This document shows, piece after piece, positions 222-44,557 of a stretch of DNA of 64,000 bases (its first letter is position 1; the number at the start of each line of letters is the position of its first letter). The notes under the pieces were generated by a model that made no database searches, had not been told where the DNA came from, and saw only the letters and a program-made list of their open reading frames with translations. The DNA is from a virus. Its lineage: Duplodnaviria > Caudoviricetes. A program made the translations under genes and the position numbers. The stretch is taken from the IMG/VR virus record IMGVR_UViG_3300036784_000120, positions 32,001 to 96,000 of that record; one strand, given 5' to 3'.

Positions 222-3200
222 CTAGGCTCCCCCGCGCGGGTAGCGGCGGGCGTACGACGCGTCTGATGCGCTCGCGTTGATCACGCCGCCGACATGCCGC
301 CCCACCCCGGCGGGGACAGCGCCGGTGACTTCGATCAGCCGGTCGAGGCGGGCCAGGATCGCCGCCGCGGACCCGTCGCTGCCCGCGGCGGGACGGCCGC
401 CGACGGGGGTGACCATTTCGCTGCCGGCCTCGCCGAGCACGTAGCCGCGGCCGGAGTTCACGCCGTAGCCGACGACCGGCTCCGTGATCATGCCGCCCGA
501 CCCGTACCAGTGATACTGGGCCTCATGGTTCCAGGCAGCGGCCGGCGAACCGTACCGTTGCGCGATGTAGTTGAGCATGCCGGTGATCTGGCCGGCGACC
601 GTGTTCACGTTCCCGCCGTACGTGGCGTACTCCGCTGGCCCGTTGATGAACTGGGCCAGGCCGTAGGCGTTTGACGTTGGGTTCTTGGCGTTCGGGTTGT
701 AGCCGGCTTCCGCCATCTCCACGGCGTTCAGCGCCGTCCACTCCGCGCCGGTCCAGCCCTTGGCGGCGGCCATCGTCTTCATCAGCGCCATGACGCTGGC
801 CTGCGTGGCGTTCAGCGCGTAGCCGTGGACGCTGTTAATGACGGCCTTGACCGCGTTGACTACGCCGCTGGCCTTGCTGAGCCCGATGCCCAGCCCGGCC
901 ATGATGTGCTTCCCGGCGTCGATCGCCCACTGCGGCGGGCTCTTGATGCCGAGCGCGCTGAGAATGTCGCCGGGGATGCCCTTGAAAAACGACACGACGC
1001 TGTTCCACACGGATTTCACCCCGGCCAGCAGTCCGTTGATGACCCCGGCACCCCAGCTGGTCAGCACTTTCGCGGCGCTGCCGACCGCCGAGCTGATCTG
1101 GCCGGGGATGCCCTTGAAGAAGTTGACGATGGCGCCCCACACCGACGTGATCGTGTTACGGACGCTGGTCCAGCCCGCCGACAGGACCGATTCGATGGTG
1201 GCGATGGTTGACCTGAAACTGGCCACCTCGGCGTTCCACCAGCCGGTGAAGAACGAGGCGACCGCGTTCCACGCGGTTTTGAGTGCGCCGGTGATCGCGG
1301 TCCAGGCGGCGGACAGCGCATTCTCGATGGTGGTCAGGGTGGTTTTCCACCCGGTCACCTCCGTGCTCCACCAGGTGGTGAAGAACGCGGCGACCGCGTT
1401 CCACGCGGCCTTCAGCGCGCCGGTGATCGCAGCCCAGGCACCGGTGAAGAACGTCTCCACCCCGGAGATGACGGCCATGATGTCGTGCCAGATGGTGGTC
1501 CAGTGCTGGGCGAGCTCGATCGCCGCGAGGGCGAGCAGCCCGACCGGGCCGAGCAGCGGCAGCAGGTACTTGCCGATCCCGTTGTAGATGAAGTTCCAGG
1601 CGTCCTCCGCGGCCGTCTTGATCGCGCCCCACACCGTGGACCAGTGCGTGACCAGCTCAGTGATGGCGACGGTGATCAGGGCTATCGCGATGACGATCTC
1701 GGTCCACCCGGTGGCCGCCCCGATCGCTGCCACGATGGCCTCCGCGATGGCGAACGCCTTGAACGCGGCTACCAGGCCGAGCACGCCGATCACGATGGCG
1801 TTCAGCAGGCCGGGCGGGATGGCGGTGATGATCGCGGCCAGCGCGGTGGCCAGGGCGCTCACCGCAGCGACTACGGCGGCGGTGAACACCCCGGCGAGCT
1901 GCAGCAGCAGCGGCAGGACGACCGGCAGGATCGAGGCCAGCGACTGGAGCACTTTGGTGACGAGCTGGGTGAGCGGCGGCAGCAGGGCGCCGACAGCGGA
2001 GACCAGCGCACCGACGAGCAGCCCCGACAGTTTGGCGATGAAGTCGATGACTGGCGGCAGGATGGGCATCAGGCCGTGCAGGAAAGCGTTGATCAGGCCG
2101 GCGAGGGGCTTGACGAGGCCCTCCAGGGCGTCGCCCAGGATCGCGAATACGCCGGTGTTTTCCAGCACGGTGAACACGGTGGAGATCACCTGCGCGAACT
2201 GGGCCAGGGCGGGCGCGACGGCGGTCAGAAGCTGGGCTAGCGCGCCGAACGCGGCCACCAGGTCCCCGAGCACCGCCCCGGCCAGGGACGCGAACACTTT
2301 GCCAATGATCGTCAGGAACGGCAGCAGCGCCTGGATGACCCCGGCGAACTGGGTGAATACCGGGGCCAGGGTCGCCGCGAAGATGGCGGCCAGCTTGCCT
2401 ATGATCGGCAGCAGCGCCCCGATCACGTCGAATATCGCCTTGAACAGGACCGCGCTCTGGTTGATGACCGGCGCGAACGCGGAGAACACGCCGCCGATGT
2501 CCTTGCCCAGGGTGCCGAGCACCTGCGCGAACACGTTAATAGCCGGGCCTGCCACCTTGAGCAGCGTCACGATGCCGGGCAGGATGTTCGCCACCAGTGC
2601 GCCCAGGCCGTCGATAATCGGGCGGATCAGCGGGGCAGCAGCGGCGAAGCTGGAACTGAAGGCAGGCAGGACCGTCTTGGCCAGGTCGCCCAGCCCGGAG
2701 ATGAGCGGCTGCGCCAGCACGAGCGCCGACGTGAAGAAATGCTCGATCAGCGGCGTGAGGGTGACGAACAACTGGGATGCCTGCGCCAGCGGCTTGGCGA
2801 ACCCGCTGGCAATGTCCATGCCGATCTGCTGCCACTGGTTACCGATCGCGACTTCGGACTTGTAGATGCTCTGGAGCGCCGGGGACAACTGGGCGACAGC
2901 CTGGTTGAGGCTGGCGGTCTGCGCGGCCACCGCTTTCTGCTGAGCCGGGGTGACTGCCAGCGCGGCTGCCTGCTGAATTGAGTTCTGCTGCGACACCAGG
3001 CTGGAGACGTTGGAGTTGACGGCGCTGAAGCCCGCTCCGAGCGCGCCCACGCCAGCGCCGCCGATCACGCCCGCACCGCCGGCAGCCAGCAGCGGGCCCA
3101 GGCCGCCCAGCAGGGACGCGCCTCCGACACCGATCGCGCCGGCCTTGCCCAGGAAGTTGGCCCCGAGGATGTTCGGGCCGATACCTCCGGCCAGGTTGCC

Positions 3201-34723: not shown

Positions 34724-37700
34724 CTAAAGTTTCGCGGCCTGCGCGGTGAGCGCGGCCGCCTGGGTCAGCAGGGCGGTGACCTGCTTGGTCAGCGCGGTGA
34801 TCTGCGCCTTGATCTGCAGCTGCGACATGCTCTTTTGCAGCGCGGCGGTCTGCGCCGGGGTGACCGCGCTCGCGGCGGCCTTCACTCCGGCGGTGACCTG
34901 GGAGGCGACCGTGGACGCGGCGGTGGCGGTCTTGGCGGCGGTGGTGGTCTTGGCTGCCGTCGTCTTCGCCGCGGTCGTGGCGGTGGTGGCTTTCTTGGCG
35001 GCGGTCGTGGCCCCGGCCTGCTTGGTGGTGGTGCCCTTGAGCGCGGCTTTCAGCAACGCGAGCTGCTTCATCTTGGCCGCAGCCTGCGCCCGCAGCGCGG
35101 CGGCCTGCTTGTTGAGGGCCGCCTTCTGGCTGGCCTTTGAGTTAGCACCGCCGCCGGCCCCGCTAGCTCCACTGCCGCCGCTGCCGAACTGGCCGCCGCC
35201 GAGCTGCCCGGCCGCGATCCGCGGGTCTTGCGCCGCCCCCGCCGCCGTGCCCGTCAGCTCAACCACCACCGAGGACAGGTCATCCCAGGTGCGGCCTCTC
35301 CTGGCAGTCGCCGGCCGGCTGGCCGTCAACTCAACCACCGATGCCACGTTGTCCCATGTCACGGTCATCATCTTCGCCGCCTGTGCCTGTGTCTGCCACG
35401 CTGATGCGAGCAGGTCGCTGATCTGGGTGTTGAGCAGCGCGACCCGCTGCCCGTCGCCGCCGGTTTTGCGCAGCGCGTCCCGCTGCCTGATCAGTGCGGC
35501 GGCCTTCGCCTGCCCCTCCTGGGCGGTGACCATCGCCTCCGCCTCCGCCGTGGACACGCCGTTAGCCTGCGCGACGCGGGCGACCTTCTTCGCGCGGGCG
35601 GCCTGCGCCTTGGCCGGCACGGCGGCGGGCTTCGCCGGCGCGGCGGTCTGCGCGGCGGGCTTCACCGGCGCGGCAGCCGCAGCAGCCGGGTCCGGCGCGG
35701 CGGCCTTCACCGGCACGGCAGCCGGGGCCGGAGCGGCAGCCTGGCCGCCTTTGACAGCGCCCTTCGGCGGGTTGAGCACCGCCGCGAACTCGAGCGCGGC
35801 GGTCTGCGAGCTGAACTGGCCGGGATCATCGAGGCGGTTGCCCGGACCCTTGGCTATGGCCCGCTGGTTGGCGGCCAGGGGGTTGGACGTAACCGCGCGG
35901 ATAGCGTTAGCCATGCCAGCAGCCCGGCCACTTCGCTTTTGGAACCCGAAACTGGGATTCGGCCAGCCGGACTTGACCTCGAACTGTTCCTTCCGGCCGC
36001 CGGGGAACTCCATCAGGACGCGCTGCGGACCCTTGGGGCTGACCAGCTTGCCCTGCTTGTTCCTCACGGGCAGCATGTTGCGGCTGCCGCGCACGACTCC
36101 CCGCCCGTACTTCGGGTGGGTGTGTATGGTGCCCGGCTCCGTCTCGGTGATCCCGCCGACCAGGACCCACCCGTGGTGGTACGTGTACCCGGTCCCCGGA
36201 AGGTGGTGCCCCGCGATCGAGGCCAGCTCGATCACCCGGTCGAGGTCACGCCAGGTCCAGCTCAGTTCGTCCATGCCGCCGTTAGGCCCTCCGCCGTAGC
36301 CGCCGCTGTCGACCAGTTCCTGCTGGATCTTGCGACTGGAGAGTGTCGGCGGCCCGTACGAGCTGAGTGCCGCGTTGTCCTTGAACTCCTGGATCTTCGC
36401 TGCCGCCAGGTCAGACGCCTGCATCCACAGCTGATGCGACCGTTGCATGTCACCGGCTGCCGCCGCCGCGCGGGACTGCCTCACCAGCCGCACGACATCC
36501 GGGTGCTTGTTGGCCGCCGCCCTGGCCTTCTCGTCCAGCGAATTCGGGTCGGGGGCACTCGTGTCAGACCAGGCAGCCCCGCCGCCGGACCACTCGCCGC
36601 GACGGTTACGCCGCTGCGCCGGGTTGAAATGGCTGAGGAAACCCAGTTCGATCGGGTCGAAGCGCCAGGCCAGTTCAACCACTGCCGCGACATCATCCCA
36701 GGTCGCGGCGTGACCGTGGATGGCCCTGGCTGCCGCGCCTTTCGCTTTCTCCTCCGCCAGCGCTCCCGCCGCCGCAGCACGGACCTCCGGGTGGGCGTGA
36801 CCGCCGCCCCGCGACCATTTCCGCAGCGCCCCGTACGCGATCGCCGACGCGCGGCCCTTGTCCATGCCCCGCTTCTCCATCAGGGCCTTGACGACCTGCT
36901 CGAAGTAGTCGGAATGCTTCATGCCCTTGACGCCGTACAGGCCGGGTCCGCCCGGCTTCCCGTACGGCGCCGGGGTGACCGCCAGCCGGCCTGTCTGGGC
37001 ACTGAACTCGAACAGCGGTGCGCCGTTCCTGGTGGGACCGTATCCGTACTTTTTCGTGCTCTTGCGGATCGCCTTGGGCAGCGGCTGCCCTATGATGCGC
37101 GCCAGGCTGGCGATGTCCGCCTTGCCCACCTTGGACCGGCTGGAGTTGCGCTCGCGCTCGCGCATGGCCTTCACGCTGTGACTGGTCGCGCCCTTGGTCA
37201 GCCTCTTAACCAGCGCGTTCACCAGATCGTCACTGGACCACTCGCCGTGCTTGCCGCGCTTCTCGCCCGGGTCGTAGTGGTGCCCCAGCCCGATCACGCG
37301 GTCAAGGTCACCCCACCCGTATGCCGCGAACTGCTTAGAACCGTTCGGCTGCCCGCGCTGCGGGTCCGCCACGGCCGGGTCACTGCCGCCGCTGCTGGTC
37401 CGGTCCGGGGCGTTCAGGGCCCGGTCACCGCCCGGCTGCCTCGCGGTTGGCCTGGCGGCGAGCGCTCCCGGACCGTACCCGGCGTTCGGGTCGCGGCCCG
37501 GCGGGGCTGACGCGTCGTCACCGTAGGAGTCCCGCCGGAGCGCCGCCTGGTTCCGCTCCGCCACATCGGCGATGTCTTTGACGAGCAGCAGGTGCCGGTG
37601 GACGCCGTGCATCGTCAGGCGGGCGGCGGTGTGCGCGTCGTCGGTGTGCAGGCCGTGCCGCATCAGCGACTGCGGGGTCAGGGAGAACATGGCGGCCCGC

Positions 37701-38080
37701 AGATGCCGCTGGGCGGCTTCCTCGTTCCCCGCGCGGAGCGTCCTGGCTGCGTCCCGGACATGCTGGTGGACGATCATGTCGGGATGGTCGGCGGCGATGT
37801 GGTCGGCGAGTTTGCTCATCGACTTCGCGGCCTGCACCCGCATCGGGGTCAGCGGCGTGTGCCTCGAGCGGCGGAACGCCGGCGGCGGGACGGCGGCAGG
37901 AGGTACGGAATTGGCTCCCCGCGCGCCTACCGTTTTCGCCGGAGTTGAACCGGTCCCTGCTCTTACCTGCGGATTGACCGCCGTCCTCCGCCCGCCGCGG
38001 CTGCGTGAGACAGCGCCAGCCGGCTTACCCAGCGGACGGCCAGGGGGCGCCTTCTTGACTGCTGCCGGGGAAGCGGTCAT
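34724..38080 (-). CDS. Large basic modular protein with repeated WxD..V[VI]EL motifs and a histone-H1-like tail
   Basis: 1118 aa; AAKKATT repeats. Confidence 0.7.
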   Translation of the reverse strand: MTASPAAVKKAPPGRPLGKPAGAVSRSRGGRRTAVNPQVRAGTGSTPAKTVGARGANSVPPAAVPPPAFRRSRHTPLTPMRVQAAKSMSKLADHIAADHPDMIVHQHVRDAARTLRAGNEEAAQRHLRAAMFSLTPQSLMRHGLHTDDAHTAARLTMHGVHRHLLLVKDIADVAERNQAALRRDSYGDDASAPPGRDPNAGYGPGALAARPTARQPGGDRALNAPDRTSSGGSDPAVADPQRGQPNGSKQFAAYGWGDLDRVIGLGHHYDPGEKRGKHGEWSSDDLVNALVKRLTKGATSHSVKAMRERERNSSRSKVGKADIASLARIIGQPLPKAIRKSTKKYGYGPTRNGAPLFEFSAQTGRLAVTPAPYGKPGGPGLYGVKGMKHSDYFEQVVKALMEKRGMDKGRASAIAYGALRKWSRGGGHAHPEVRAAAAGALAEEKAKGAAARAIHGHAATWDDVAAVVELAWRFDPIELGFLSHFNPAQRRNRRGEWSGGGAAWSDTSAPDPNSLDEKARAAANKHPDVVRLVRQSRAAAAAGDMQRSHQLWMQASDLAAAKIQEFKDNAALSSYGPPTLSSRKIQQELVDSGGYGGGPNGGMDELSWTWRDLDRVIELASIAGHHLPGTGYTYHHGWVLVGGITETEPGTIHTHPKYGRGVVRGSRNMLPVRNKQGKLVSPKGPQRVLMEFPGGRKEQFEVKSGWPNPSFGFQKRSGRAAGMANAIRAVTSNPLAANQRAIAKGPGNRLDDPGQFSSQTAALEFAAVLNPPKGAVKGGQAAAPAPAAVPVKAAAPDPAAAAAAPVKPAAQTAAPAKPAAVPAKAQAARAKKVARVAQANGVSTAEAEAMVTAQEGQAKAAALIRQRDALRKTGGDGQRVALLNTQISDLLASAWQTQAQAAKMMTVTWDNVASVVELTASRPATARRGRTWDDLSSVVVELTGTAAGAAQDPRIAAGQLGGGQFGSGGSGASGAGGGANSKASQKAALNKQAAALRAQAAAKMKQLALLKAALKGTTTKQAGATTAAKKATTATTAAKTTAAKTTTAAKTATAASTVASQVTAGVKAAASAVTPAQTAALQKSMSQLQIKAQITALTKQVTALLTQAAALTAQAAKL

Positions 38081-38628
38081 GTGATCCTCACCTTCCCGCG
38101 CATGGCGAGCGTCACCAGCGCAGACTCCCAGCCCGTGTCACCCAGCGTCTCAACCCCGATCGGGCGGCCTTCGCCGTCCACGTCAACCATCAAGTCATCA
38201 CCGACGGGAATGGTGCGCGCTACCGGTGTCTTCTCCGGCAGCAGGTACACGTAGCCGAGCCGCAATCCGTTCCCGGTTTCCTCCCGTGCCTTAGCCAGCG
38301 CCGGCCGCAGGTCGAGGATGCCGACCACCCGGCCGTCCGGCAGCGGCACTTTCGCCAGCATCGGATGCCCGTGGTGGAGCCGGTTCGATTCGGCCCACAC
38401 GTCAGCTGCCTCATCGTCCCGGTAGATGGACGCATACACGTCGTCGGCGGTGACAGCCGGGTCGACGGGAACCTGCGTGGTCCTGGCCAGCGCCAGGGCG
38501 TCAGCACCAGCGATGTGCTCTGGCATGCCGTACTGCGCGGCCATCCCGGCACGCCGGGCGCTGCGCTCCACTACCCCGGCGGCCCGCGCCGGGTCGGCGT
38601 AGAACTCGTACGCCTCGTCATCGCTCAT
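38077..38628 (-). CDS. Protein with C-terminal DUF2283-like domain
   Basis: GYVYL...VARTIPVGDDLMVDVDGEGRPIGVE. Confidence 0.65.
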   Translation of the reverse strand: MSDDEAYEFYADPARAAGVVERSARRAGMAAQYGMPEHIAGADALALARTTQVPVDPAVTADDVYASIYRDDEAADVWAESNRLHHGHPMLAKVPLPDGRVVGILDLRPALAKAREETGNGLRLGYVYLLPEKTPVARTIPVGDDLMVDVDGEGRPIGVETLGDTGWESALVTLAMRGKVRIT

Positions 38629-39140
38629 GCGGCCACCGCCAGCGGCCCGCAGATCCCGCAGGCAGCGTCCGTGACGTTGCCGACGGACAGGTGCGGGCAG
38701 GAGAACGTCCGGCCGGCGCCGGACAGCGACGTGCCGAGCGTCTTCGGCTCGCCCATCCGGCCACTGCCCTTGATCAGTCCCGTGGGACGCGCGGCACCGA
38801 GACGCAAGTCAACCTGCCCGTACCTGACGAGGACGGGCAGCAGCGCCGCAGCGACCTGCTCGAGCGCGCCAGCCGGGATCCGCAGCGGCTCGTCGAAGCC
38901 TTCCACGGCCAGTTCGGTGGCGGCCGGCACGTCGAGCTCCCGGCGCACCAGCCGCCTGATCCACGATCCCACAGTGACCCCTTCCCCGGACGCGCGTTCC
39001 TTCACTGCCTCGATGACCTCGGGCGCGAACCGGACCGCGGTCATGGCGGTGAGCCGCTGCCCCTGGCGTTTGCGGCCCGGCCCGGTGATCTGCAGGTGCT
39101 CCGGGTTGGCGTAGAACTCGTACGCCTCGTCATCGTTCAT
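38625..39140 (-). CDS. Ribbon-helix-helix (CopG/antitoxin-like) protein
   Basis: TAVRFAPEVIEAVKERASGEGVTVGSWIRRLV. Confidence 0.75.
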   Translation of the reverse strand: MNDDEAYEFYANPEHLQITGPGRKRQGQRLTAMTAVRFAPEVIEAVKERASGEGVTVGSWIRRLVRRELDVPAATELAVEGFDEPLRIPAGALEQVAAALLPVLVRYGQVDLRLGAARPTGLIKGSGRMGEPKTLGTSLSGAGRTFSCPHLSVGNVTDAACGICGPLAVAA

Positions 39141-39261
39141 GAGGCGCACCATCCGCAGGTCGTGGTGTGGCGGCGGCCCAGCGGACGCCACCGGCAGCCG
39201 CACCGGCAGTCATGCCGCCGCCAGACAGCGAGCCGGACCAGCCGCCGCTCAAACGTGACGC

Positions 39262-40746
39262 TCATGCTGCCCTCGCATATCTCGCGCCGCGGCTCGGCAG
39301 CAGCGCCGCACCCGGCCAGGGCGGGCCCGGATAGCAGCGGCAGTTGTGAACTAGAATGCTATTGGCGGTGTACCAGCCGGTCGTGGTCTGGAGGTTGTAG
39401 ACGTGCGTCGAGTCCCGGAACCTGCGGACCTGCCTAACCTGGTCGAACGCTACGACAGAGGCCAGAGCGTCAAGGCGCTCGCCGACGATCTCGGCATGAG
39501 CCGGATGGCGCTGACCAGGTTCCTCCGCGAGAACGGCGTCCAACTCCGCGGCATCACCGACGCTAACCGCCTGCTGGCGGCTAACCGCAGCCCCGAGGAG
39601 CATGCGCGCAACGCCGAGGCGGCTCACGCCGCCGTGCGCGGAAGCCGTCAGACGATCGGGCACCGGACCAAGATCGCCCGCGCCAAGCACGGCCAGGCGA
39701 CCGGGAGCCCCACGGAAATGCTCTATGCCGAGTGGCTGGCCGACCTGCACCCGGTGCATCAGTTCGCGGTCGGCCCGTACAACTGCGACCTGATGATCGA
39801 GCCCGTCGCCGTGGAAATCAACGGCGGCCACTGGCACGGTTCCGGTCGCCACGCGGCCAGGGCCCGCGCCCGCACCGAGTACATCCTCGATCAGGGCTAC
39901 AACATCGTGTTCGTATGGGTCACCGGCCGCACAGGCGGCGCCCGGATCGAGAGCGCGAACTACATACGATCTGTCGTCGAGTTCGCCAGCAGCCCGGTAC
40001 CCCTGCGGGGTAAGTATTGGGTGGTTTGGGGTGACGGTGAGGTCGTACCCATCGGCGGTTACGATCTCGACGAACTCGCCGACGTACCGACGCGCGGCCC
40101 CAAGCAGCACTGACGGCGACACCACCTTGGTGCCCGCCGGGAAGCAGTGCGGGTGGACAGCACCGGGGAACCCTATGTGCGGCATGGCCGTGGCGTAGAA
40201 GTTTTTCCGGTCCGCGGCCATGCACTCGGCGCTGGTCCGGTCGTCGAGCACCGTGTTCCAGCCGAGCAGCGGCCCGTGCTCCACCGCGGCCATATCCGTT
40301 TTCCCTGCCGCAGTGGCCCGGTTCCACATGGCTGCCTGATGCTGCGCATAGAAACGGCGTTCGGTGGCGAGCTGATCCCGGATCGCGGCGGTCACCGGGG
40401 TGCCTTTCGCCCGCGCGTCCCGCGCCGCCCCCATCACCCGGCGGGTCGCGGCGATCACGTACTGGGCGCGGCGGGCCGCGTTCATCCTTGAGGTTTGCTC
40501 CGATGCCGCCCCGATCACCCCGGTCACCGGCGGCGGGGTCTGCATCACGTCGGTGAGGACCCCGCCGAGCGCCTGCCACGTCGCGGCGGGCAGGGCGAAC
40601 CGCCGTTTCAGCAGCGCGACCGCGGAGGCCGCGGATACGGCGGTGACGAGCACCGCGGCGACAGCGACGGCGAGGGCAGCGTCACCCAGGCCGTCATCAC
40701 CCGCCGGCGGCGGCGGGGGCTGCTGCTGCGGTGCCGGGGTGGTCAT
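39262..40746 (-). CDS. MuF/SPP1 gp7-like minor head protein containing an intein
   Basis: WNTVLDDRTSAEC; HPH|CRC is restored after splicing. Confidence 0.88.
   Translation of the reverse strand: MTTPAPQQQPPPPPAGDDGLGDAALAVAVAAVLVTAVSAASAVALLKRRFALPAATWQALGGVLTDVMQTPPPVTGVIGAASEQTSRMNAARRAQYVIAATRRVMGAARDARAKGTPVTAAIRDQLATERRFYAQHQAAMWNRATAAGKTDMAAVEHGPLLGWNTVLDDRTSAECMAADRKNFYATAMPHIGFPGAVHPHCFPAGTKVVSPSVLLGAARRYVGEFVEIVTADGYDLTVTPNHPILTPQGYRAAGELDDRSYVVRALDPGAACAAGDPYEHDVVALIEDVLGAGAGPGRVATGTVPVAAVDFHGDGLDHQVAVVRADRELMHRVQVGQPLGIEHFRGAPGRLAVLGAGDLGPVPDRLTASAHGGVSRLGVARMLLGAAVSRQQAVSVGDAAELDAVLAEEPGQRHPAHAEIVGERLDALASVVAFDQVRQVRRFRDSTHVYNLQTTTGWYTANSILVHNCRCYPGPPWPGAALLPSRGARYARAA
39343..40146 (-). 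mobile_element. Intein (268 aa) inserted in the MuF HPxCRC motif
   Basis: C1 CFPAGTKV, block B TPNHP, block F HVYNL, terminal VHN followed by Cys+1. Confidence 0.92.
39403..40113 (+). CDS. HTH plus Vsr/DUF559-like endonuclease, antisense inside the intein
   Basis: HTH SVKALADDLGMSRMALTRFL; SPTE...QFAVGPYNCDL...AVEINGGHWH...GYNIVFVW; GGAGG 8 nt before the GTG. Confidence 0.82.
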   Translation: MRRVPEPADLPNLVERYDRGQSVKALADDLGMSRMALTRFLRENGVQLRGITDANRLLAANRSPEEHARNAEAAHAAVRGSRQTIGHRTKIARAKHGQATGSPTEMLYAEWLADLHPVHQFAVGPYNCDLMIEPVAVEINGGHWHGSGRHAARARARTEYILDQGYNIVFVWVTGRTGGARIESANYIRSVVEFASSPVPLRGKYWVVWGDGEVVPIGGYDLDELADVPTRGPKQH

Positions 40747-42628: not shown

Positions 42629-42951
42629 TGTGCGGCCCCCGGTGTCCCATGCACCGCTGCCGTCCACGCCGTGATCACGGCCGTCACGAACCGGGGATCC
42701 TGGCTCATCAGCCCGTCCAGGTCGGCAGGCACCGGATGACCGTCGTCGTCCTCCACGTTCCACGACTCCAGGGCGTAGCCGAGCGTCGCGGTCATATGGC
42801 GGAACGCCGCCAGGTCACCGGAGGCGACCGCAGCAGCAGTGTCGAGCATCACCGACATGGGCACCGGCCGGACCGTGATCTCCAGCCCTTCATACTCGGT
42901 GCCGGTGAAGTCCAGCTTGAACGGGGCGCGTTTCGGCCGGAAACCTGTCAC
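42625..42951 (-). CDS. Tail-chaperone-like protein
   Basis: YEGLEITVR...LESWNVEDDDGHPVPADLDGLMSQD. Confidence 0.5.
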   Translation of the reverse strand: MTGFRPKRAPFKLDFTGTEYEGLEITVRPVPMSVMLDTAAAVASGDLAAFRHMTATLGYALESWNVEDDDGHPVPADLDGLMSQDPRFVTAVITAWTAAVHGTPGAAQ

Positions 42952-44557
42952 TGTGCCGCTCCCGGTAGTCCGCCTGCTGCGGGCGGGTTCTGCGGTGGCC
43001 GCGGCGGGCCCGCGGCGGCGGGACGCATCTGCGGTGCCGACGGCGGCCGTGGCCCCTGCTGCCCGCCGCCGGCCCTGGCGGCGGCCTGCTGCGTGATCGC
43101 CGTGCCCGCCTGCGCGAGTCCCTGCAGCTGGCCGAGCCCCGCCGCGGCCTCCGGCGGCATGCCAGGCGGCGGATTGCCAGCTAGCTGTTCGGCACGTTGC
43201 GAAGCGGTAGACACCAGCGCGTCATGCACCTGGTCCACGTCCAGCTGCAGAATCGACGCCATCCGTTCGGTGATCAGGTCAAACACCTGCAGCGGCACGT
43301 GCAGCACCGGCGCCGCCGACATCTGCCCGAACATCGTCAGCAACTGCTGCGCCTGCTCATCCTGAAGCGGACCGAACTTCGCCTGCGGATACGATGCGCC
43401 GGTACCGAAGTTGAGCATCACCAGCGGCCGGATCACGTCGTAGGAGATGGATTCGGCGATTTCCTTCGCCACACCCTGACGCGACTTCAGGTAGAAGTCG
43501 GACTGGTCCTGCGACAGGCTGTAGGCGCCCTTCCCGCCGGTTGACGCGGACGCGAGGCCGAGGAACCCGGCCAGCACACTGCTGATCGCCCACGACGACA
43601 GGAACGACAGCGCCTGGGAGAAGAACAGGCCCGCATCCGCGGACGACGGGATCGCCTCGAACGCCTTCTGCCCGTCGATCGGGTGCACCAGCCCGACGAC
43701 ACCGGAGCCGCGGAGCTGGGAAATGTCGTCGGCGCGGGCGGTGGCTTCCGGCTGGTCGTTGCCGTAGACGACAAGCCGCTGCAACGCCATGTTCTCCAGG
43801 TAGTAGTACCAGAGATACAGCAGCTTCATCTGGGTCGAATGGCACCAGTACGCCACCTCAACCTCGGACACGCCCGTCAGCGGCTCCCGGTGCTTCCCGT
43901 GGGTGTAAATGTAGGAGCGGATCTTCGGGATATCCACATACCCCGGCACCTTCTGCCGCCTGGACAGCATCAGGTTCCCGCCGAACAGCCACACCTGCTG
44001 CCGGAACCCGTTCGCCTCCCCCGACCTGTCGTTATACCGGGCCTGGCACGTGGCAGGCGGGCGGAACGCGATCTTGTCGTAAACGATCTTCCCGTCCGAC
44101 TCGCGGACCTTGAACGTCTTCTCGAAAAACGCCCGCCGGTACAGCTGACCCGACGTGATCTGGCCGAGCAGCTCCGTCATCGGCGTCCGCATGCCGCCCT
44201 CAGTGTCCGGCGTCATCAGCACGCTGCGGATGAAGTCGCATTCGCCTTTGTCGCCCTTGCCGGGCTCAATCGAGAAGTCGGCTTCGCGGATCGGGAGGGT
44301 CAGCACCAGCTCGAGGGCCTGCGCGGTGCCGTTGCGGGAGAACATGGTCTTCAGGTCACGAGACGACCATTCGCCATATTCTTAAATCGAAGACATCACC
44401 CTCGCCGTAGTAGGCGAACAGCCGCTGACCGTAGTCAAACGAGGTCTAAAGTCCCGATCTCAGGACCCATCAGGGTCCGCTTGCCGCCCGGGCCGCGGGA
44501 GCCCTTGGGGGGGAGATCGGGGAAGGCGATCACGTTAGCGTCTTTACCGGATGCCAT
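42948..44557 (-). CDS. Portal protein (about 531 aa), interrupted by two 7-nt TTA-containing inserts
   Basis: Mu gp29/DUF935-like core; N-terminus MASGKDAN...GPEIGT|SFDYGQ...DVFD|YGEWSSRDLKTMF is restored by removing 2x7 nt. Confidence 0.82.

Follow-up and report, generated by a model that had tools for sequence, protein, structure and literature searches.

A predicted Vsr-like homing endonuclease gene antisense to a class-1 intein in a MuF-like phage head gene

Organization of the intein locus

We analysed a window of 64,000 nt from a Caudoviricetes virus (IMG/VR record IMGVR_UViG_3300036784_000120, positions 32,001-96,000), which has a G+C content (GC) of 70%. On its minus strand lies a MuF-like head-morphogenesis gene that is interrupted by a class-1 intein, while the plus strand of this intein carries an open reading frame (ORF) for a protein with an N-terminal helix-turn-helix (HTH) part and a Vsr-like nuclease core. 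The two probably constitute a composite selfish element at the HPx/CRC motif of the MuF-like protein, in which a contiguous class-1 intein shares its triplets with a homing-endonuclease gene on the opposite strand. The features of the locus are collected in Table 1, in which all positions refer to the window.

Reading of the minus strand gives the order ...GFPGAVHPH / CFPAGT...TVTPNHP...STHVYNLQT...NSILVHN / CRCYPG..., where the slashes mark the intein borders. An original prediction, made from the sequence alone, had claimed that a canonical intein splits the HPH-CRC motif of MuF, and the intein blocks were found where it had placed them. The window intein possesses C1, T39-P-N-H42, H267-N268 and the +1 Cys, and C1, T39, H42 and N268 are invariant in an alignment of 43 intein sequences (A2). 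Since the catalytic residues are intact and a functional MuF protein is needed, the intein would be expected to splice. The minus-strand product as a whole matches PHROG 15127, annotated as 'head protein', with E 2e-24.

The plus ORF also agreed with the original prediction with respect to its position, its length of 236 amino acids (aa), its HTH and Vsr-like parts, its exact codon register and its GGAGG motif. The start coordinates of both ORFs equal 1 modulo 3, and therefore both frames share the same triplets. In this register, plus position 1 pairs with minus position 3. The two coding strands overlap over approximately 700 nt.

Table 1. Features of the intein locus in the window (pLDDT, predicted local distance difference test).
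Feature	Position	Strand	Remarks
MuF-like head-morphogenesis precursor gene	39262..40746	-	494 aa including the intein; mature protein ~226 aa
N-extein, end ...GFPGAVHPH	40147..40746	-	Reading of the minus ORF
C-extein CRCYPGPPWPG...ARAA and stop codon	39262..39342	-	Reading of the minus ORF
Class-1 intein, 268 aa (Cys1...His-Asn, then +1 Cys)	39343..40146	-	Pfam, alignment, AlphaFold2
Hint N-lobe, intein residues 1-~70	39937..40146	-	pLDDT 81-97
Block B, TPNHP	40018..40032	-	Within Hint N-lobe
In-frame intein linker, residues ~71-229	39460..39936	-	Antisense read-through of the endonuclease gene
Hint C-lobe, residues ~230-268	39343..39459	-	pLDDT 89-95
Block F, HVYNLQT (His codon)	39403..39405	-	Within Hint C-lobe
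Block G, SILVHN	39343..39360	-	Within Hint C-lobe
Homing-endonuclease gene (predicted), 236 aa and stop codon	39403..40113	+	N-terminal HTH, Vsr-like (EDxHD-type) core
HTH DNA-binding module, plus residues 12-56	39436..39570	+
Vsr-like nuclease core, plus residues 100-220	39700..40062	+
Shine-Dalgarno motif GGAGG	39390..39394	+	8 nt before GTG; antisense of block F Asn-Leu-Gln codons
-10-like hexamer TAGAAT	39352..39357	+	45 nt before start codon; antisense of block G ATT CTA

The antisense protein and the in-frame centre of the intein

To characterize the products of both strands we used profile searches, alignments of homologues and structure prediction. For the plus ORF the Pfam family HTH_58 scored 29.3 bits, above its cut-off of 23.8. 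An exhaustive phmmer search with the plus ORF returned 1852 cluster representatives at E<=1e-3, of which 1111 were found at E<=1e-10. In an alignment of 34 sequences (A1), N127 (39781-39783) and D129 (39787-39789) were invariant and E138 (39814-39816) was conserved in at least 90%; all three residues are present in the window. Further motifs of A1 were AAHAAVRG, GPYNxD, VAVEIxGGHWH and YILDQGW, and GGHWH is again found in the window.

AlphaFold2 modelling on A1 reached a mean pLDDT of 88.6. The predicted structure consists of at least three N-terminal helices followed by an alpha/beta core, in which the catalytic domain adopts a PD-(D/E)XK-like fold of the Vsr type. Comparison of the A1 profile with the PDB provided matches to 3r3p (E 9.5e-6) and 3hrl (E 1.2e-4). 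A Foldseek search against the PDB found nothing at E<=1e-3; its best match was 3r3p with 2.5e-3, and VIA-align clarified the match to this structure. We conclude that the plus ORF is a real gene that belongs to a genuine protein family. Longer, fused forms with the nuclease in frame were searched for as well, and none was found at E<=1e-3 (weak evidence). Within the 127.8-kb viral record the nuclease is present as a single copy, the one described here. A blastn search of the nuclease gene against phage records gave only short matches, and we therefore see no close relative among deposited phages.

The AlphaFold2 model of the intein, built from 43 sequences, showed two confident, beta-rich Hint lobes (residues 1-70 and 231-268; Table 1). 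Between them the pLDDT was 51-86 over residues 71-128 and below 50 over residues 129-219. A Pfam domain search of the in-frame centre found none. According to these models the sense-strand centre of the intein is filler, i.e. the antisense reading of the nuclease gene, which is how the original prediction had described it.

Conservation of the two open frames

In register 0, stop codons arise only opposite the triplets TTA, CTA and TCA of the other strand. We examined 88 loci, comprising 7 from phage records and metagenome contigs, 80 IMG/VR loci (out of at least 510 matching stretches) and the window. In all 88 loci, whose GC ranged from 40 to 73%, the opposite strand contained an ORF of 286-1317 aa that spanned the whole match, always in register 0. 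For 51 non-redundant loci we calculated the expected number of stop-making codons from the codon usage of the exteins of each locus. Against an expectation of 221 such codons for the nuclease ORFs and 282 for the intein frame, 0 were observed. The probability of finding none in the 51 loci corresponds to log10 P values of -107 (plus frame) and -136 (minus frame). In phages with a GC of 40-51%, where 8-13 stop-making codons were expected per locus, the frame was still open. Judged from codon statistics, the double-open pattern across the relatives is far beyond chance. Both frames stay open because TTA, CTA and TCA, all of which have synonymous alternatives, are avoided.

The dual-coding reading of the original prediction was upheld by the in-frame centre without a predicted fold together with the open opposite frame in 88 of 88 loci. 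The latter, and the invariance of N127 and D129, also substantiate its expectation that the antisense ORF is conserved in homologues.

One alternative is that the plus ORF is a shadow ORF, which arises from high GC and sense conservation, and that the intein holds a novel or degenerate in-frame domain. Antisense frames in register 0 are often open in GC-rich genomes, and for the window alone, with its GC of 70%, two open frames are not significant (P ~0.42-0.48). Because the window by itself provides a P of only ~0.4-0.5, the case rests on the relatives and on protein-level evidence. Also some sense motifs are well conserved: The motif DFHGDG (intein residues 101-112) has an identity of 0.62 compared to 0.66 for the overlapping antisense motif VAVEIxGGHWH (39811-39846, plus residues 137-148). 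A shadow ORF is, however, at odds with the frames that remain open at 40-51% GC and with the plus frame being more conserved than the minus frame, its third position being the most variable one (see below). Moreover, the plus product has a pLDDT of 88.6 and a Vsr fold versus a pLDDT below 50 in the sense centre, and the independent Pfam and PDB profile matches favour the plus frame. These observations effectively refute the shadow ORF, which we regard as extremely improbable.

Another arrangement to be considered is that of the 'fractured genes', where two separate polypeptides, each bearing one half of a split intein, would be trans-spliced into MuF, with a free-standing endonuclease gene located between the two coding parts. 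The first description of Vsr-like endonucleases concerned exactly such genes (Dassa et al. 2009, PMC2677866). Fractured genes resemble the locus of the window in that split-intein halves enclose a free-standing GIY-YIG or Vsr-like endonuclease, which has its own ORF at the usual intein endonuclease insertion point and short coding overlaps with the intein parts; also the linker of the window intein seemingly lacks a structure of its own. In the known cases, however, one strand carries all three ORFs, stop codons interrupt the host gene and splicing occurs in trans (PMC2677866), whereas in the window the nuclease gene runs antisense to an intein that is part of one polypeptide. The minus ORF is continuous, and its frame is free of stops across the nuclease in 88 of 88 loci. 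The complete lack of stop-making codons where 282 were expected in 51 loci shows selection for read-through. A fractured gene is thus a very unlikely description of this locus.

A tblastn search with the nuclease found 93-99 phage records, among them Salmonella, Gordonia, Pseudomonas, Klebsiella, E. coli, Vibrio and Idiomarinaceae phages. In every phage record inspected (Snoke, Vivi2, Malisha, seven Jersey-like phages and one each of Pseudomonas, Vibrio and Klebsiella) the nuclease match was antisense to the annotated MuF/head-morphogenesis gene. The same antisense layout was present in four long metagenome contigs, for which the gene callers had chosen the nuclease over MuF. Among 14 inspected phage records the antisense nuclease was listed only once, namely as a 'hypothetical protein' of Salmonella phage PK2 (PV446483.1; L092:611-1420). 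Most phage annotations overlook the gene or give it a wrong label, and metagenome callers often take it instead of MuF.

In two metagenome contigs (L004, L006) an apparent gap between portal and scaffold is seen where callers pick the nuclease and omit MuF. The annotation of E. coli phage Snoke (L001) lists the intein and omits the nuclease. In Klebsiella phage RCIP0054 (L102:1192-2928) a MuF intein with an antisense nuclease is found in which GGHWH is replaced by VAVELTTKCPNRF. Both frames are open in this phage, and the coverage of the match to the window nuclease is only 55%; the nuclease of this phage may be decaying or divergent.

Selection along the two strands

Comparing approximately 1890 pairs of sequences, we found an identity of 0.37 for the plus translation versus 0.29 for the minus translation, with either protein as alignment guide, and plus position 3 was the most variable position. 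The two strands behaved differently along the overlap: Over plus residues 1-192 (intein residues 57-248) the identity was 0.39 for plus and 0.25 for minus, with plus position 3 being most variable, while over plus residues 193-236, which face the Hint N-lobe and block B, the minus identity amounted to 0.42-0.63 and minus position 3 was most variable. Purifying selection is thus strand-specific, and it changes strand at about intein residue 57.

The same pattern was obtained from single-base changes between 8 Jersey-like phages that are 77-93% identical. Within the nuclease part, 738 changes were synonymous only in the plus frame and 253 only in the minus frame, and within the Hint N-lobe the ratio was reversed with 70 plus-only versus 112 minus-only changes, whereby these pairwise counts lack phylogenetic independence. 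The exteins of the 8 phages had an ordinary minus-strand substitution pattern.

Base composition points in the same direction. In the linker stretch of the window the GC by plus codon position is 0.70/0.49/0.86. Over plus residues 1-192, third codon positions of the plus frame have a GC of 0.86 and those of the minus frame one of 0.70. As the former value is near the GC at third codon positions (GC3) of the extein of 0.87, the composition follows the plus frame.

The original prediction had further stated that the nuclease ORF overlaps intein block B. Plus residues 206-210 (VWGDG) are indeed antisense to TPNHP. The last beta-strand of the nuclease core (plus residues 205-209, pLDDT ~90) lies antisense to block B, and therefore approximately 20 codons in this short stretch are constrained on both strands. 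Apart from it, the locus provides a clean natural case of sense/antisense double coding over ~700 nt, in which the functional domain of each strand faces the filler of the other.

Predicted expression signals within intein codons

Read on the opposite strand, the His codon of block F forms the start codon of the nuclease. The His codon is CAT, which gives ATG, in 40 of 50 loci where 18.5 were expected (p 6e-10). For the Leu of block F, CTC is used in 47 of 56 loci compared to a background of 32%, and this codon yields GGAGG 8 nt upstream of the start. An exact GGAGG was found in 24 of 50 loci and a match in 4 of its 5 positions in 20 more.

A second signal is located exactly 45 nt upstream of the start, where the antisense of block G residues -5/-4 reads TANNNT in 34 of 63 loci, with TATAAT in 16. 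The TANNNT rate at the block G site was 61% versus 4.6% at other [IV][ILV] dipeptides of the same ORFs (p 4e-27). Codon choice in block G is biased correspondingly: ATT encodes the Ile at -5 in 36 of 51 loci (background 25%, p ~1e-11), and ACA, which provides the TGN of an extended -10 element, encodes the Thr at -3 in 19 of 30 loci (background 12%, p ~9e-11). An extended -10 box would be spelled by block G Ile-Ile/Leu-Thr as ATT-NTA-ACA.

In the window, TAGAAT is the homologue of this block G site. That it is created by atypical ATT CTA codons, as originally predicted, was confirmed: TTA and CTA together account for 1.4% of the Leu codons in the neighbouring genes. The GC falls to 0.61 over 39325-39474. 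The proposed -10 box and ribosome binding site gained comparative support from these counts in the relatives. According to the codon biases the predicted expression signals are under selection across the loci. On balance we slightly favour the view that the nuclease gene is more than a passenger and that its signals are hard-wired into the most conserved intein codons, such that intein and nuclease would form one co-adapted module that is always in register 0, always located at the MuF HPx/CRC site and spread over phages of Actinobacteria and Gammaproteobacteria.

Relation to known systems

Gosselin, Arsenault & Gogarten (bioRxiv 10.1101/2025.01.02.630785) have reported full inteins in the minor capsid proteins of actinobacteriophages that bear anti-sense VSR-like endonucleases and whose in-frame endonuclease region shows no recognisable structure. 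The locus of the window belongs to this type, i.e. it combines a full intein, an antisense endonuclease ORF and a minor capsid/MuF extein. It shares with the systems of Gosselin et al. the contiguous intein in a minor-capsid/MuF protein, the antisense endonuclease ORF and the Vsr-like fold matching 3R3P (EDxHD). The window nuclease also matches Gordonia phages of their data set (Vivi2, Angelicage, Fosterous and Affeca). Because the 2025 preprint already describes antisense VSR-like inteins, the window is a further example of a known layout. While Gosselin et al. were limited to actinobacteriophages (PhagesDB), our loci include an IMG/VR record as well as Salmonella, E. coli, Klebsiella, Pseudomonas and Vibrio phages. 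Their text contains no analysis of promoter, ribosome binding site, start codon or stop-avoiding codon usage, all of which were analysed here, and we found no description of a co-adapted module organisation in the preprint (bioRxiv 10.1101/2025.01.02.630785). Possible additions to knowledge are the expression signals that lie inside the intein, the unvarying register with its avoidance of stop-making codons, and the spread to phages of Proteobacteria.

Antisense endonucleases of the LAGLIDADG family in inteins go back to Gorbalenya 1998 and Gogarten et al. 2002, as cited in the same preprint. As far as they are presented there, they are alike in carrying the endonuclease on the strand opposite to a full intein, and differ in the nuclease family and in their hosts, which are dnaX, SpoVR-like and some minor capsid proteins. 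I-Bth0305I, an EDxHD enzyme (Taylor et al. 2011, PMC3239194; PDB 3r3p), is encoded in a group I intron of phage recA. It has ~16% identity to the window nuclease and a different N-terminal DNA-binding part, which in the window consists of HTH repeats. Canonical bifunctional inteins share the Hint domain, the insertion at a conserved host motif and the presence/absence polymorphism typical of homing. In canonical inteins, however, the LAGLIDADG or HNH nuclease domain belongs to the same polypeptide as the Hint domain, whereas here the nuclease is encoded by a separate antisense gene opposite to an in-frame filler that is predicted not to fold.

Presence and absence of the element and its possible mobility

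Alleles with and without the element exist among close relatives. In E. coli phage EC3-1 exactly the 816-bp intein is absent and the sequence reads AHPN-CRS straight through. Of the Jersey/Kaguna records, ~70 contain the element and ~420 match its flanks only. For the N-extein of the window, intein-less relatives were found at 72-73% identity (L097 and L099), in which VHPS/CRC and PHVG/CRC are continuous at the insertion site. Gain or loss on the timescale of this extein divergence therefore follows.

The following scheme would account for these observations. The minus strand would be translated straight through into the 494-aa precursor, in which an unstructured linker of ~160 aa joins the Hint lobes, and splicing would rejoin ...VHPH with CRC... 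On the plus strand, the -10-like box, GGAGG and GTG within the block G and F codons may drive synthesis of the 236-aa HTH and Vsr-like endonuclease (EDxHD, I-Bth0305I-type), which the original prediction had supposed to be independent of the late host protein. The enzyme would most likely cut intein-less MuF alleles of co-resident phage genomes, and repair of the break by recombination would transfer intein and nuclease gene as one unit (homing). It is possible to knock out one of the two genes while leaving the protein of the other unchanged, since a Leu or Ser codon recoded as TTA, CTA or TCA in one frame creates a stop codon in the opposite frame.

Several properties of the window copy and of the data weigh against an active element of this kind. 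Of the Pfam profiles, HTH_58 exceeded its cut-off, but Intein_splicing (E 1.7e-6, 28.4 bits, cut-off 35.8; a match spanning the split, residues 218-468) and the REase family MTES_1575 (20.8 bits, cut-off 38.2) gave weak matches below theirs. Also the match of Phage_Mu_F to the minus product of the window was weak (15.2 bits, cut-off 29.6), while homologous intein hosts in other phages exceed this cut-off with 36-43 bits. The block F His codon of the window is CAC and provides a GTG start, unlike the ATG of most relatives. A consensus scan of 39150-40350 found no sigma-70-type promoter or terminator site, only the -10-like hexamer, for which the window contains no -35 match and no extended -10 (TGN). 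To these come the chance level of the two open frames in the window alone and the lack of independence of the substitution counts, both mentioned above. Finally, some VSR-type inteins are apparently vertically inherited (bioRxiv 10.1101/2025.01.02.630785), such that the window copy may have lost its mobility.

Taken to its end, this argument would imply that the layout is genuine in the family and that the window copy is a vertically inherited, immobile relic, whose nuclease is unexpressed or inactive and whose ORF is kept open by high GC only. The GTG start, the TAGAAT box without extended -10 and -35, the open antisense frame that is expected by chance at 70% GC (P ~0.42), the nearest relative found being only 69% identical and the vertical inheritance of some VSR-type inteins would fit such a relic. 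It is less easily reconciled with a full-length ORF in which N127, D129, E138 and GGHWH are intact, with a plus-frame GC3 of 0.86, with the presence of Shine-Dalgarno and -10 elements, and with the gain or loss implied by the intein-less relatives at 72-73% extein identity. Taking both sides into account, we consider a relic unlikely and prefer the composite selfish element.

Neighbouring genes and a variant locus

A Mu-type portal gene (42948-44345; Portal_Mu E 2.8e-24) is located upstream of the MuF-like gene. Directly downstream of MuF two minus-strand ORFs follow (38077-38628 and 38625-39203) that both start with ...DDEAYEFYA(D/N)P... and look like tandem paralogues. The first of them matches DUF2283 with 23.4 bits at a cut-off of 23.0. 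A gene similar to these ORFs follows the intein-less MuF in L099. In the head-gene block further downstream, the minus-strand ORF 34724-38080 (1118 aa) contains long low-complexity stretches rich in Ala, Pro and Thr and is without Pfam match.

A different arrangement was seen in L071:2183-3711 (IMGVR_UViG_3300050821_012663). Here a MuF-like ORF of 178 aa ends intein-less (...AHPRCRCSLGLPGDAGS and stop codon) and is followed on the opposite strand by a gene for an HTH and Vsr-like nuclease (2306-3178, +). The antisense frame of this nuclease is open over 344 aa, has only degenerate intein blocks without TPNHP, and ends in a second copy of the C-extein (...SHCRCSLGLGDDNG and stop codon). The locus appears to be a variant with a free-standing nuclease, and it may represent an intermediate stage at which an intact host gene had been regained and the nuclease had left the intein.

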